A DNA stretch of 64,000 bases from Candidatus Latescibacterota bacterium. GTDB taxonomy: Bacteria; Latescibacterota; UBA2968; GCA-2709665. Made by a program: the position numbers. The DNA is taken from contig CBDDDZ010000005.1 in assembly GCA_965226795.1 (NCBI GenBank), positions 2,272,001 through 2,336,000 on the forward strand, read 5' to 3'. The first letter of the stretch is position 1; each line of letters begins with the position of its first letter. Positions 1-64,000 of this stretch are shown here, one piece after another.

Positions 1-3000
1 CATGGGTCTGAATGGGATCACGACCAGGGGATATTGATCGCCAAGACAAAGGGTCCTAAAATCTCCCTCTACAACTCGTACTCTGCGTTTTACGGCGGCA
101 GATTCGTCGGCGAGCTTTGCCCGCAGGACCTCCAGCATCGCGCGAGATGCATCTATCCCCGTGACGTCAACACCCTGCCGCGCAAGCGGCAAAGTGATTC
201 TACCGGTCCCGCAGCCAAGCTCGAGTACAGGTCCGCCATACTCCTTGGCCAGATCCAGATAGAATTCCCTGTCAACCAGGTCTTCCTTGGCGCTGTACGC
301 GGCGTCGTAGTGCTTCGCTGCCAAACTGTAGGAATCATCAGTCATTGTGAGTTGCCTATCGTGCTGTCAGGGTCTGTCCATTTGTTGTAGCGGTGTGCCG
401 GTCTGCGATCCCGGAACCAGGCTGCTGACCCTGAACCCTGAGCTTGCGGTCCCTGAGCCTGCGGTCCCTGAGCTTGTCGAAGGGTCGAAGGGCAGTCGAA
501 GGGTGTCGAAGCCGGGCACGGGATCTTTTTCGCTGGCTGTTTCACTCATGCCGTGCCAACGAGTTTCTCCCTCAGTTTGACCGCAGTCTGGTACGCATCG
601 GCAAGAAACTCAGTCGGCGGTTGAGCGCGATCCCGGGGCACGGCCTCAATCATGACTGGACCATCGTACGATGTGGGATATCCTTTCGAAACTGCATCCC
701 AATCTACGATTCCTTTCATCGGCAACCAGTGAACGTCGACCTGTCCGTCGGTGTCTGAAAAGTGCGTTGTGATGAGACGCTTCGCCCACTTCCCAAGTAC
801 AGCGGTGGGAGTGCCGGAATGCAGATAGTCGTGTGAGCTATCGTAGCACAAGCCCAGGCTCTCCAGGGGTACTTCATTTAAGATGAAGTCCAGGTGAGTG
901 GTTGCCCTTGTATTCTCAAGCGCCAATTTGATTCCAGCGTTTGCTGCCTCCTCGCCCAACCGTTGAAAAATCTCCAGTCCTTTCACGTGAGGCGGAGGCG
1001 GTGTTGGTCCCCTGGTTACGTGAAGCACAATGGACGAAATCATATGCCGACTGCAGTATTCAATCAACTCAAGGTTCTCATGAACCAATGCATCGCGTTC
1101 GCTGGGCTTGTCAGACCAGAAAGCATTCGCGGTTTCGAATGTTGCGTGGGCGTGATCCACCTTAAGCCCGGCATCGGCAACCATTCCCGGCATTTCGTGC
1201 GCACGACCGGATTCCACCATGGGTTCCTGGCTACCCATCCACAAAAATGTGTGACTGAAACCACTCTGCCTGATCAGACTCAGGCGCTCGGTAAGAGGCA
1301 GTTCGTAGCCGAACCAGACAAATGTGCCGAGGGAGGCCTCGGCTCTACCGGAAGTCATGAATTGTTCTTCTCATCATATTGCGCCTGACCGCGCATTAGG
1401 GAACAGATGCAACAATCCAGACCAGATCTGAGGAATCGTGGCGAGCGTCGTCGAAAAAGCTTTTGCCGGCATGCGGGTCAACCCACCGGGCCAGCGTCCG
1501 CGAGGGGTTGCTCCCGCGCTGCACGTCGGAATAACCAGGACGAAACGACCCACAAAGCAATGAAGAACCCGTTCAGACCGAGGATCTCAAGCGGCCCGCT
1601 CGCGGGGTACCCCAACCTGCCAATTAGCGCGACCGCGGTGACCAACGCCTGGGCGAGCGCCGTCGCGAACAGTGCGAGTGCCATTCCCCGAGGCTGGAAG
1701 CGCGCGGTGACGGCACCGATGATTCCGACGGCGAGTACCCCGAAATACATCAGGTTTGCGTCGTTGTTCTCGGATCCGATCATGCCGACTGCGCCATTCA
1801 CCCAGAGGAGGATGACCGCTGTCGCGAGCGCGATGCCGATGGCAAATCGGTAGGGATTACACGTAGTCATTGCTTCTCCTATCGTCCCGGCGGGGTTGTT
1901 TGACCATCAGGAGTTTCGGATTCCTGGTTACGATACACTGTGCACACGGAATGAGCCGAATCCTCAGCCTTTTTCGGCGTCGATATTGCCGCTGACGTTC
2001 CCGAGCCCCTGCAAAAACCCCGAGCTGGGCCGCTGAGCCTGCGCCCTGAGCCGCTCCCTGAGCTTGTCGAAGGGTCGGCGAAGGGTGACGATGAGTTGCC
2101 GGAGGCCTGGGTGCCGCAGGCGCTTAGTGGTAACTGGTTGTTATAGGCAACGGATCACCCACATCTCAAATGCTTGATCATGATCAGGCAGGGGTTCTCC
2201 TCGCCCCATAGGTTCGTTTCCTCAATGGGCCGGAAACCAGCGGTCTCATAGAATGCGCGGGTCTGCGCATAGTGTGCAGACGGCCTGGAGGGGCCGAGCG
2301 TTTTGACTTCCAAATATTCCACGCCCAGGGAATTAAGGGATTGTTCCACGTGGTTTACCAGGTTTCGCCCAATACCCTTCCTGTGAAAATCCTTCCTGAC
2401 GGCCATCACGTGAATTTCCGCCGTATACGGATTGTGCTGCTGAATCGTGATGAAGCCCACGACCTTCCTGTTCACTTCAACAACATATGAATCCATTGCC
2501 TTGATATCTTGAGAGTACTGCACAATCGACTCTTCAATGCCAAACCAATCGGGAAGGGATCGCATGATGGCTTCGCAGTCCGTTGCTTCTTCACCTGCCA
2601 GGGGGCGGATGACAAATGGTATTTCCTGCAGGTGGCTTCGTTTTTCCACAGTGGCCTTAAGACGTTAATCGGTAGTGGTGATTCCAGTTTCTATAACTTC
2701 CCGTCGGTTTGAGAACCCCGAACTCGGCCTTGGTGCCTGCACCCTCAGCCTTGCCCTGAGCTTTTACTCTAAGCCTGTCGGAGAGATGCAGAGGGCGTTG
2801 CCGAAGGCCCATGCGGCGCGCTACAGGAACCGGATGTCATGCGATGGGGTTCATTTCCTACGCGAGCGGCCGTCCCCAGGAAATCCGCGTTTGCAGATCG
2901 AAGCTTAGAATCCCGCCTTCGTCAGCGTACTCGAAGAGGATGCTCGATAGCTCGGCATCAAATGCCGCTGCATTGTCCTCCCCCATGTGTTTGACGGACA

Positions 3001-63000: not shown

Positions 63001-64000
63001 ATCCTCCGAACAGATACAGGTGATCTCCGATCACAGCGTATCCCAGCCCGTACCGAGGGGAAGGCCGTGCAACATCATCCGACCGGTTCTCCTGAATGCA
63101 GGTCCAGGCGCCTCCGTCGGGATCGTATTCCCACAGATCGTTGTAGAACTCCGGCGCTCGACCCTGACTGTCCCGACCGCCCCACAGGTAGAGCCTGCCG
63201 TTCCAGCCGGCCAGCACGGGACAGTATCGTTTCGGCGGCCAACCGTTGCGTCCATTCGATGCAGGCCCCAGGTGCTCCCATTTCCCGGCCGGCGCCTTGT
63301 AGGTCCACAGCTGTGCGTGCGTCATCGCGCCATGGCCCCCCATCAGATACAGGTAATCACCCAGAACGGCCGCCCCCATCCCGCCCGAACCGGCGGGACG
63401 ATGCCCATCCGCCGTTATTCCTGATGCGCGCCCGTCGTCGGGCTCTAACAGCTCCCACGAGGCTGTCTTCGGATCGTAGGCCCAGAGATCGTTCAGCTTG
63501 ATCTCCCTCTTGCCGGGGCCCCGCACTGAGGACCCGCCAAAAAGATAAAGCCTGCCGTTCACGGGCAGCCAGGTCGTGAGCTTCCGGGTACACGGTCTGG
63601 TATCGGACGGTCTGAACCCGATGCGCCCATCGTGGTCTTCCAACCGCGTCCACCGGCCTCGACCCGGGTCGTAGCGCCACAGGTCGTTCAATGAGCCCTG
63701 GACGGAAAGATCTCCAGGCCCTTTCGGCCGGCCGTACATCACTTTTATCCCCCCGAACAGGTAGACGCATCCATTGTAGCTCAACATCCCGCCGAAGGCC
63801 GCCCGCCTACAGGGTACATCCTCGGCTTGCTCCTGGTCCGGATGCAGCAGTTCCCACTTCATAGTGGACCTCCGCACGGCCTGACTTGTGATTCTGCGGA
63901 GAAAGTTCGGCATATTCCATTCGTAGCCGAAAAACTTGATACAGTTTATTCGCCGTGGAAGACTTCAAAATAAGGTGGTTGTTGCCTTTTGTGCGCGATT

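Follow-up and report, generated by a model that had tools for sequence, protein, structure and literature searches.

Introduction

The closest described systems are the sedentary chromosomal integrons, long co-oriented arrays of mostly one-gene cassettes with AAC...GTT cores, a G|TT crossover and a single entry site adjoining the recombinase gene; in most of them the bottom strand is on the leading-strand template (PMC8946536). The I2 insertion of the integron integrase, IntI, is regarded as the innovation that created integrons (PMC7790495). Treponema reverse integrons carry a protruding G in the attC L box, and their enzyme is treated as an IntI (PMC3607928). CALIN are attC clusters with no IntI nearby; the standard survey set aside I2-less recombinases near attC and reported no complete integron in Firmicutes (PMC4889954). 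"Integron-like" tyrosine recombinases are IntI relatives without the helical insertion, and the passages of Smyshlyaev et al. that we consulted link the subgroup to IS91 and IS3 elements and mention neither HARP domains nor cassette arrays (10.1101/542381). Archaeal XerA and the XerCD-dif system are more distant comparisons.

The locus described here shares all of the above features of sedentary integrons, and the VchIntIA-VCR structure (2a3v) is the best sequence and Foldseek match of its recombinase. It differs from them in lacking I2 and an extrahelical L-stem base, and in having a putative extra HARP/UvsW-like domain, a loop asymmetry of 2-4 nt, a conserved outer-stem G.T pair and a branched top; the absence of bulge and I2 also separates it from the Treponema systems as described. 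As in CALIN, attC-like sites are clustered and an IntI is absent both from their vicinity and from the rest of the genome, but a specific recombinase family and an attI-like site head such arrays in many unrelated genomes. The enzyme groups with the "integron-like" recombinases. XerA gives the top VIA-align Z (22.9), yet the genome has an XerC/D-type gene elsewhere (C5:2887974-2888825), and the array holds dozens of variable sites versus one dif. Our literature search found no description of such a system. We conclude that the locus is a genuine, shuffled array of mobile gene cassettes with an integron-like build, and we put the probability that it is a chromosomal platform for gene cassettes, sedentary and of a non-canonical integron type, at about 0.78.

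Results

A one-strand array of hairpin sites

The window is a 64,000-nt stretch (C5:2272001-2336000) of contig CBDDDZ010000005.1, called C5 here, of assembly GCA_965226795.1 (genome G000); its features are collected in Table 1. A covariance model trained on 23 sites was used to search 177 kb, the window plus the neighbouring L001-L006, at E<=1. This search gave 37 matches, 36 of them on the minus strand, and the one plus-strand match was a partial overlap of a known site; 33 had E<0.001, 10 of which were outside the training set. The 36 sites, 70-152 nt long, lie at C5:2205.8-2359.1 kb, and 21 of them (19 strong and 2 weak) are in the window. The genome-wide survey's note had reported at least 37 attC sites, all on the minus strand, in clusters of 28, 3 and 6 (main, middle and distal). 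The one-strand array and the three clusters stand, whereas the count is now 36, divided into 27, 4 and 5 with two half-sites in addition. When the model was applied to the whole genome, at least 31 matches were found with 150 of 5112 candidates scored, all on the minus strand of C5:2205825-2359068. Outside the array nhmmer found two weak matches, both on C3 (E 0.0012 and 0.038). An Rfam search of the window gave no match. A model-free AAC...GTT folding scan was dropped as largely noise that missed the majority of sites, and detection relied instead on arm-alignment, HMM and CM searches.

Table 1. Features of the array (window positions, except where C5 marks contig positions).
Feature	Position	Strand	Remarks
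Onset of 68-kb eroded stretch	1..8444	minus	co-oriented cassette-type genes; continues before the window
attC-like site, middle cluster	8445..8529	minus	degenerate right core
Weak attC-like site, middle cluster	10621..10730	minus	REP-like insert
attC-like site, middle cluster	11252..11393	minus	142 nt; cassette at a different place in G013
attC-like site, middle cluster	15808..15886	minus	
27-kb eroded stretch	15887..42939	minus	co-oriented cassette-type genes: GNAT, NUDIX, methyltransferase, AAC(3)-like, Fic, HNH
Eroded site	21247..21322	minus	E 7e-4
Eroded site	23095..23195	minus	no right core; E 3e-6
IS21 genes	34723-36976		within 27-kb eroded stretch
DDE transposase	38083-39717		within 27-kb eroded stretch
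Main cassette array, part in window	42940..64000	minus	17 sites
Final site of main array	42940..43039	minus	degenerate; REP-like insert
attC-like site	46228..46375	minus	REP-like insert
attC-like site	48222..48315	minus	cassette 48229-48817, NUDIX
attC-like site	48811..48902	minus	cassette 48818-49661, HAD hydrolase
attC-like site	49655..49735	minus	cassette 49662-50506, methyltransferase
attC-like site	50500..50585	minus	cassette 50507-51247, AAA/kinase-like
attC-like site	51241..51370	minus	REP-like insert; cassette 51248-51875, NUDIX
attC-like site	51869..51947	minus	right core degenerate; cassette 51876-52582, FMN reductase
attC-like site	52576..52671	minus	cassette 52583-53469, HAD hydrolase
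attC-like site	53463..53555	minus	covariance model
IS3-type element (HTH_Tnp_1 and rve genes)	53888..55365	minus	within a cassette interval
attC-like site	56058..56161	minus	cassette 56065-57719; its 483-aa gene has a match to the candidate defence model PDC-M36A
attC-like site	57713..57799	minus	cassette 57720-58583
attC-like site	58577..58658	minus	closes 373-bp cassette 58584-58956
attC-like site	58950..59035	minus	covariance model
Weak attC-like site	61190..61259	minus	E 0.23; cassette 61197-61764, AAA_33 kinase-like gene; ends match
attC-like site	61758..61854	minus	cassette 61765-62378, HicB-like antitoxin gene
attC-like site	62372..62453	minus	core end GAT; closes cassette with Kelch-repeat gene 62735-63913
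Main array past window end	C5, beyond 2336000		10 more sites, truncated platform copy, attI-like site, split recombinase gene
Second, truncated platform copy	C5:2341910-2342307		within array
attI-like site, crossover	C5:2359817-2359820		
Split tyrosine recombinase gene (whole 2359948-2361080)	C5:2359948-2360760 and 2360595-2361080	minus	two frames; outside window
Distal cluster	C5:2205825-2211758	minus	5 sites and one half-site

The sites start with TAAC in 31 cases and end in GTT in 30 of the 36; five fit GTTRRRY. One minus-strand ORF fills more than 55% of the interval in 20 of the 23 intervals shorter than 1.8 kb, which bears out the cassette organisation proposed before. The earlier statement that the 68-kb and 27-kb gaps hold no attC did not survive. 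Eroded sites were found in the window (at 21247 and 23095), the minus strand held 15 of the 16 weak matches in the gaps but 7 of the 21 in flanking sequence (Fisher p 2e-4), and the gaps of the sister genome G013 retain clearer sites than those of G000.

Cassettes with matching ends

At the ends of the G000 cassettes (n=20), 8.75 of 14 positions matched the start of the same cassette, versus 5.0 for the end of the same site, and none of 20000 permutations was as high. Pairs from distant genomes (n=58) gave 9.9 versus 5.5 of 14, with none of 5000 permutations as high. G013 carries a duplicate of one cassette, whose 5' border is at GTT, and the order of several cassettes is altered in G013 and G008. 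These data show that the cassettes are real units with two mutually complementary ends, bounded by the crossover point and mobile as in integrons. The extended end pairing was also present in a canonical array (4 pairs), which counts against our reading. No excised-circle joint was found among the 15 of 36 contig joints covered; contigs drop rare forms.

Site geometry and predicted strand folding

The structure assigned to the sites is supported by covariation: 86.9% of cells were paired, with 65 double-sided changes, a level that none of 500 shuffles reached, and slid controls gave 28-43%. The array sites fold into a hairpin with R''/R' cores AAC...GTT, as integron sites do, and have an unbroken 9-bp L stem without a bulge and an asymmetric 4/7-nt loop; the top is branched in this lineage. 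Canonical attC sites have spacer lengths of 5/6 nt. Neither such a spacer nor extrahelical L-stem bases were found in the sites of G000, and a bulged L-stem pattern validated on IntI loci matched none of them, whereas bulged sites adjoin IntI in G065, G017, G044 and G062. Thus, of the earlier description as integron-type attC, the cores and the hairpin fold hold and the canonical geometry does not; the sites are attC-like with a geometry of their own. Six matches to the bulged pattern downstream of distant HARP loci, versus one on the opposite strand, count against this separation. A base left unpaired where the structure branches, above the L stem, could serve in much the same way as an extrahelical base.

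At position 11 of the outer stem the top strand has A.C (G.T on the bottom strand) in 55 of 59 distant pairs and 13 of 15 of our own, all chosen beforehand for having 8 or more matches over 14 end positions. The bottom strand folds better than the top in 53 of the 59 distant pairs, and GC skew places the bottom strand of the array on the leading-strand template. One such site, on a Chryseobacterium plasmid, is interrupted between its TAA and its C by a group II intron of the opposite strand.

We then considered whether the same platform and enzyme could work by classical double-strand, Xer-type recombination with both strand exchanges, the inverted repeats being two binding arms or a cruciform. 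Such a reaction would suit an enzyme without I2, the insertion that prevents the second strand exchange in IntI (PMC7790495); it would also suit the unbulged L stem and the presence of archaeal XerA among the nearest folds of the enzyme. However, the arms vary freely among cassettes with compensatory changes, recombining partners share GTT only, the position-11 mismatch is one-sided, and the bottom strand is the better folder; recognition of a folded strand therefore fits better than that of a duplex sequence. We regard the double-strand reaction as unlikely, and the substrate is probably a folded single strand.

The head recombinase

The closest solved relative of the head recombinase is IntI4 (2a3v), to which it aligns in two pieces (query 4-153 and 181-258 with 19-170 and 240-317). 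Its best NCBIfam scores were 210 bits for NF040815, the top match (cut-off 220), and 206 bits in two stretches for TIGR02249 (cut-off 265). PF00589 and PF13495 were matched, and the R, K, HxLRH, H and Y motifs of a catalytic tyrosine recombinase are invariant in the family alignment. The I2 insertion is absent, with 27 residues in place of the 69 of IntI4, as the description of an IntI-like recombinase without the IntI-specific domain had it. The spacing from R to HxLRH is 92 aa; it is 90-94 in 138 of 146 sequences measured and 133 in 4 IntI. An XerA/XerCD resolvase is not indicated: the enzyme is below all cut-offs and does not follow a single-copy housekeeping pattern.

The upstream frame appears to code for an N-terminal HARP/UvsW-like domain. 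HARP (PF07443) scored 14-17 bits, below the cut-off of 25 (E 0.006-0.03). Residues 9-78 of the homologue model P0003, used for the structural evidence, align with the N-domain of T4 UvsW (Z 6.7, rmsd 3.0, 61 aligned); the split N-terminal frame, folded from its sequence alone, reached only pLDDT 33. The Foldseek matches listed were recombinases only, 2a3v being the best. The HARP/UvsW/MutS-like fold senses branched or mismatched DNA.

Close orthologues of the split gene are intact, with 376 aa. In the protein collection the C-terminal split product was on one contig only, G000's own, and the exact split N-terminal products were absent; nothing appeared at the place of the frameshift, which may be real or an assembly error, among 12 of 72 contig indels. 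The gene being broken in the assembly of G000, the array is probably frozen. Among 40 relatives the gene is patchy and often broken: it is truncated in G008, G013, G003 and G015, it lies inside an array of the opposite strand in G016, and G001, G002, G006, G010 and G014 have 8-18 sites each with only XerC/D-level recombinase matches. These cases count against our reading. G000 itself has no IntI above cut-off and no second recombinase of this kind.

The attI-like entry site

The recombinase gene points toward an attI-like site about 130 bp downstream. Eight platform copies in G000, G013 and G008 have about 110 bp in common and then five different continuations right after GTTA, and contigs of runs X1, X9 and X3 depart from the reference at that same base, as expected for an attI into which cassettes insert at G|TT. 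We looked in 25 distant loci for the GTT with the best match to the far end of the first cassette, and in 21 it is 60-260 bp behind the gene (7-13 of 14 matches). The inferred entry point of the other four was either 449-933 bp away from the gene or a poor match, and these, probably cases of missed sites, were not counted as attI. A scan of the platform for a cassette promoter (Pc) gave one 9/12 sigma-70-like match, inside the gene, which equals the chance expectation. Runs labelled sponge metagenome gave only small shares, so no habitat is drawn from them.

Distribution beyond this genome

Around 80 distant loci of the recombinase family, the 283 kb of downstream sequence held 102 sites on the strand of the gene and 4 on the other strand, and shuffled sequence gave 0-3; upstream, 598 kb held 2 sites on the same strand and 6 on the opposite one. 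Counted by locus, 27 of 38 had sites downstream versus 2 of 69 upstream. A site was present at 23 of 25 HARP-bearing loci and still at 4 of 13 without a detected HARP domain, ORF extraction being incomplete for several of the latter. The association is seen in seven or more bacterial phyla and in one archaeon, in most cases without an IntI (none above cut-off in 41 of 47 genomes tested). On the complete chromosome of Desulfitobacterium sp. Sab5, which has no IntI above cut-off, at least 28 sites follow the gene. The same arrangement in relatives and distant phyla answers the earlier concern that the recombinase stands beside the array by chance. The sequences show a cassette unit bounded by GTT at either end, a fixed entry point, an order that differs between relatives, and an enzyme family that travels with the site type.

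An ordinary CALIN, with canonical cassettes left by a lost IntI beside an unrelated Xer-like gene, the conclusion of Cury et al. for such cases, is largely refuted and very improbable. In its favour, no IntI is near the array, orphan arrays are common among relatives, 6 of the 47 genomes do have IntI, and Cury et al. found the recombinases without the IntI domain near attC to be scattered in the tree with few sites (PMC4889954). Against this, the geometry is unlike that of IntI-linked sites even within one genome (G065, G017), the association is strong, one-sided and on the same strand across many phyla, and the attI-like site is fixed directly behind the gene, a dedicated platform that canonical attC debris would not have.

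IS91-type elements provide a further alternative. The genome G020, with 67 sites and the head enzyme as a fragment only, carries six 2.48-kb elements of a recombinase and a Y2 transposase that start with GTT and end with a hairpin and GTT, the ends matching; five of the six are followed by array sites, and ends of the same kind occur in G017 and L075. IS91-type elements with a HARP-less sister recombinase thus use the same kind of site. These elements and the sites at 4 of 13 loci with no HARP domain detected indicate that sites of this type do not depend on HARP. In a quick tree (4 IntI, 2 of 6 having been removed by the motif filter, and an outgroup from one order), array-type and IS91-type enzymes are close, but the tree does not fix the order of the IntI, IS91-type and array-type branches (support 80). 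Our site detector used offsets 2-4 and missed the IS91-type terminal hairpins, mostly of offset 5, so the "no site" class for this type is too strict. Cassettes might then be moved in trans by such a recombinase or a HUH transposase, the head recombinase being a dispensable relative. This we consider quite unlikely: G000 has neither an IS91-type transposase, directly downstream of the gene or elsewhere, nor a second such recombinase, and at most loci it is the 3' end of the HARP-type gene that the attI-like site goes with. The elements look like passengers using the platform's entry site.

Discussion

Taken together, these data suggest that the cassette platform is very probably served by the head recombinase family, I2-less and with a HARP/UvsW-like N-terminus. 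The platform is predicted to function like an integron, yet it has neither IntI nor canonical attC sites, and this pairing of an I2-less recombinase with differently shaped hairpin sites appears again in many bacterial phyla.

In the mechanism that we propose, the enzyme would be an Xer/IntI-related tyrosine recombinase of about 376 aa. In a circular cassette, the bottom strand would form a hairpin made up of an outer stem (about 15 bp, with G.T at position 11), the 4/7-nt loop, the unbulged 9-bp L stem and the branched top. The recombinase may cut this folded strand against double-stranded attI at G|TT, and replication would resolve the junction, as for IntI; new cassettes would enter there while older ones shift away and erode. 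The asymmetry of loop, G.T pair and branch may stand in for extrahelical bases as the signal for strand choice, which the HARP-like domain may help to read; that the domain reads site structure is a tentative suggestion. Published work holding I2 to be necessary for cassette capture (PMC7790495) counts against activity of an I2-less enzyme.

A broader reading, for which we see even odds, is that of a second widespread class of integrons, in which folded-strand recombination would proceed without I2 or extrahelical bases, by way of loop asymmetry, the G.T pair and a junction-sensing HARP-like domain. Such a class would be frequent in Bacillota, Bacteroidota and Spirochaetota and would extend to archaea, and recombinase-bearing IS91 elements would share its site type and behave as self-mobile cassettes. 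If so, single-strand cassette recombination predates I2 and IntI is a derived branch, and tools that require I2 and a bulged attC miss a large pool of cassettes.

An I2-less family with a fixed entry site heads arrays in many phyla, Bacillota included, and the conserved mismatch with the paired ends offers a new handle on cassette formation. If the family is active, the origin of single-strand recombination would be testable directly with natural intact enzymes, a large pool of genes would be under-represented in integron surveys, and a likely function would emerge for the recombinase gene that IS91-type elements carry.

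Sites and cassette genes of the array

An arm-complementarity scan together with nhmmer supplied seed sites, from which 23 sites were aligned. In their common structure (an R box, a 9-bp L stem and two inner hairpins), 86.9% of 481 cells were paired and 65 double-sided changes occurred, with none of 500 shuffles as high; slid controls were 28–43% paired. A covariance model returned 37 matches at E≤1 in 177 kb, comprising 36 minus-strand sites and one partial plus-strand overlap. Thirty-three of the 36 sites had E<0.001 (10 of those were outside the training set), and 21 sites lie within the window (C5:2272001-2336000). 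The genome-wide survey's note had claimed at least 37 sites, all on the minus strand; the strand was borne out, whereas the count by covariance model was 36. When the whole genome was searched with the model, all 31 matches fell in C5:2205825-2359068 on contig C5 (150 of 5112 candidates were scored). The site cores start with TAAC in 31 of 36 cases and finish with GTT in 30, and 5 of 36 match GTTRRRY.

A single minus-strand ORF was present in 20 of the 23 short intervals between sites, as the same note had described for neighbouring sites. Among the 110 array ORFs scanned are NUDIX, GNAT, HAD, methyltransferase, kinase-like, HicB, PIN, Fic and HNH genes. Others have one of several domains resembling aminoglycoside- or chloramphenicol-modifying enzymes, or encode transposases of the IS3, IS21 and DDE types. 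Domains found in the array and its eroded parts were APH-like, AAC(3)-like (two copies), AadA C-terminal, chloramphenicol-phosphotransferase-like and aminoglycoside-adenylyltransferase-like. PADLOC models were matched by 5 of 26 array genes tested; candidate anti-phage matches were to PDC-M36A, PD-Lambda-2_B, type IV REase-like HNH and PDC-S23/Fic. Two units, a Kelch-repeat gene and a DDE transposase element, were recently duplicated within the array.

The gaps between the clusters, previously held to contain no attC, carry two clear site remnants, and the minus strand holds 15 of the 16 weak matches there, compared with 7 of the 21 in the flanks. Sites are better preserved in the corresponding region of G013, a genome of the same genus. 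The gaps are eroded array. Several sites have a REP-like short repeat in their loops, and eroded sites carry it too; the repeat may invade and inactivate sites.

Coordinates of features in and around the array (C5, contig; L002 and L003, DNA stretches)
Feature	Position	Strand	Remark
Recombinase frames	C5:2359948-2360760 and 2360595-2361080	-	outside window
attI-like platform	C5:2359817-2359947	-	outside window
10 sites and one half-site	C5:2336040-2359068	-	outside window
Second platform copy (truncated recombinase end and attI-like site)	C5:2341910-2342307 = L002:5910-6307	-	outside window
Distal cluster	C5:2205825-2211758	-	outside window
Resistance-type domain genes (APH-like, AAC(3)-like, etc.)	window 7321-8382, 24110-25615, 31050-32039; L003:6078-6944, 9716-10282, 13039-13647
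Candidate anti-phage matches	window 56200-57651; L002:7256-8143; window 32017-32781, 20324-20710
REP-like repeat in site loops and eroded sites	window 10675, 23140, 42983, 46320, 51286
Further REP-like repeat copies	window 2016, 2714, 5673, 5788
Kelch-repeat gene, two copies	window 62654-63959; C5:2345131-2346436		98%
DDE transposase element, two copies	window 38061-39957; C5:2212642-2214537		99.6%
ECF sigma factor and ankyrin gene pair	window 11446-13051	plus	between two sites

Cassettes as units and the attI-like site

We compared the 14 bases after GTTN at each cassette start with the reverse complement of the cassette's own far end. For 20 cassettes of this genome shorter than 1.5 kb, 8.75 positions matched the own far end versus 5.0 for the end now next in the array (Wilcoxon p = 5e-4; 0 of 20000 permutations as high), and 58 pairs from 18 distant loci gave 9.9 versus 5.5 (0 of 5000 permutations). 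G013 and G008, both of the same genus, carry blocks 97–99% identical to ours in changed order, and one cassette is present twice in G013 with its 5' border at GTT. The cassettes are thus real units. The 1.9-kb unit with the ECF sigma factor and ankyrin genes occupies another place in G013.

The recombinase 3' end occurs in eight copies in this genome, G013 and G008, which have about 110 bp in common and then five continuations directly past GTTA. Contigs from sequencing runs X1 and X9 (a joint with 21 letters on its short side) and X3 (a loose end, matching the first cassette of G013) depart from the reference at the base after GTTA. Because the platform copies split and these contigs diverge at the same base, an attI-like site was defined at C5:2359817-2359820. 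The cassette behind the second platform copy has a far end that matches that copy, and in 21 of 25 distant loci the GTT best matching the first cassette's far end was 60–260 bp behind the gene. Truncated recombinase ends with an attI-like site recur inside arrays (one in ours, three each in G013 and G008), suggesting that the platform was repeatedly duplicated or re-acquired. Three near-palindromic motifs ending in GTTCG lie ahead of the crossover (stretch L001:4830-4930), and GTTCG also opens the right L arm of most sites; they may serve for binding of the recombinase or as a repressor box.

The recombinase

The best solved relative of the head recombinase is the Vibrio integrase IntI4 (2a3v). 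The match falls into two pieces, between which the head enzyme has 27 residues and IntI4 has 69. The R-to-HxLRH spacing is 92 aa (90–94 in 138 of 146 sequences measured; 133 in IntI), which upholds the earlier description of an IntI4-like enzyme without the IntI-specific insertion, I2. No gene in the whole genome reached the TIGR02249 cut-off. Homologues match the upstream frame with their N-termini, and HARP matches it weakly. In a confident model of homologue P0003 (pLDDT 92), a small alpha/beta N-domain aligned to the T4 UvsW N-domain (Z 6.7, rmsd 3.0, 61 residues). The UvsW/HARP-type N-domain fold senses branched or mismatched DNA; no statement of this was found in the literature searched.

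Three full-length 376-aa proteins of one 90% cluster match both frames (80–93% and 93–96%), so the frames are one gene, broken in the assembled sequence; in one of the three, P0155, the catalytic-Arg pattern was not matched. Decay of the gene is plausible because the recombinase is truncated in genomes G003, G008, G013 and G015. Along stretch L157, other samples had 1532 extra letters at L157:12842 and were without 1406 letters at L157:5430-6837, and several contigs from other samples skip portions of the recombinase gene, as though it were decaying in many populations. In a tree of 56 proteins (quick search), IntI (support 99) and the IS91-type group (99) were separate, and together with the array-type enzymes they stood apart from XerC/D (100); support for all I2-less enzymes as one group was only 80.

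Pairing of recombinase and sites in distant genomes

An alignment of 52 homologues retrieved at least 80 loci among at least 595 candidate stretches. An unbiased arm-offset scan gave its highest counts at +2 to +4 on the gene's strand in the downstream DNA (36, 30 and 22 hits), versus at most 3 per offset upstream. With this geometry, the 80 loci listed had 102 same-strand sites and 4 opposite-strand sites in 283 kb downstream, versus 2 and 6 in 598 kb upstream (shuffles, 0–3). Among the loci listed, at least one site occurred in 27 of 38 downstream (at least 1.5 kb available) versus 2 of 69 upstream; 42 of the 80 loci had a contig end within 1.5 kb on the downstream side, and 11 on the upstream side. 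The site-bearing loci listed come from Bacillota, Bacteroidota, Spirochaetota, Gemmatimonadota, Nitrospirota, Thermodesulfobacteriota, Ignavibacteriota and a Methanoperedenaceae archaeon; sites were present in 23 of 25 listed loci with the N-domain versus 4 of 13 in the mixed group without it.

IntI exceeded its cut-off in only 6 of 47 genomes, with a split IntI in a seventh. Desulfitobacterium sp. Sab5 (complete chromosome) has no IntI, yet at least 28 sites within 50 kb behind the gene. Genomes G065, G017, G044 and G062 have bulged sites at IntI loci, and G065 and G017 have both systems. The bulged pattern found no site in our array; behind distant HARP loci it found 6, versus 1 on the opposite strand. 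The pairing of recombinase and sites is general.

IS91-type elements as an alternative

Sites were found in 28 of 41 genomes of the order, many without an enzyme trace above XerC/D level. G016 (L035, L170) has its recombinase gene inside an array of more than 20 opposite-strand sites flanking it on both sides. A real rival explanation is that IS91 enzymes acting in trans move the cassettes. G020, with 67 sites and a fragment of the head enzyme, carries six 2.48-kb IS91-type elements (L160-L165; e.g. L012:1291-3770), each a HARP-less recombinase plus a Y2 transposase. They share cassette-type ends, starting with GTT and finishing in an attC-like hairpin and GTT, with matching ends and the position-11 mismatch of the cassettes; array sites follow five of the six, and four of these five have sites downstream only. 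Both ends also occur in G017 (L137) and locus L075 and the right end in L090, with no clear match in L073, L117, L145 and L159 by the same search. However, our genome has no IS91-type transposase. Because HARP-less elements end in the same hairpin kind, HARP is not required for this site type.

Site anatomy and proposed mechanism

In this genome a site consists, in order, of TAAC followed by 4 nt, a 9-bp arm, a branched top, the complementary arm, and 7 nt before the closing GTTA. In reconstituted ends the outer stem is paired to about position 15 apart from position 11, where top-strand A opposes C (bottom-strand G.T) in 55 of the 59 pairs from distant loci and 13 of the 15 from this genome, all chosen beforehand for matching at 8 or more of 14 positions. 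In the canonical G065 array, four pairs had 10–15 bp of pairing without a fixed position-11 mismatch. For 53 of the 59 distant junctions the bottom strand gave the more stable fold, as it did on average for our 15. GC skew marks the bottom strand as the leading-strand template, which is also how most sedentary integrons are oriented (PMC8946536, in part).

A non-canonical site on plasmid NZ_CP041688 (L158, ~18700-20560) is interrupted between its TAA and C by a group II intron on the opposite strand. This site belongs to an array behind the same recombinase type, so the platform is present on plasmids too. IIC-attC introns target the attC bottom strand (PMC3001079, in part).

We infer that a folded bottom strand would recombine with double-stranded attI. 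Loop asymmetry, the G.T pair and the branch would stand in for extrahelical bases, which I2 and strands 4–5 contact in IntI (PMC3053210, in part).

Discussion

In the available parts of their papers, Cury et al. judged 21 I2-less recombinases beside attC, in genomes without IntI, not to be IntI and reported no complete integron in Firmicutes (PMC4889954); Escudero et al. stated that I2 is necessary for cassette capture (PMC7790495); Smyshlyaev et al. placed I2-less IS91/IS3 element enzymes in an integron-like subgroup, without cassette arrays (10.1101/542381); and Wu et al. described Treponema integrons as co-oriented, with bulged attC (PMC3607928). The set of Cury et al. may include members of the head-recombinase family. 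The available portions of PMC9668308, PMC2426708, PMC8618304, PMC13616975 and PMC5737581 contain no such system, and no paper on an I2-less recombinase with a cassette array was found in the literature searched, which mostly excludes subscription journals.

The array is real; it works in an integron-like manner but is not a canonical integron, lacking two defining features, I2 and extrahelical bases. The copy in this genome is probably frozen. It is an unusually large, well-layered example, and intact orthologues exist.
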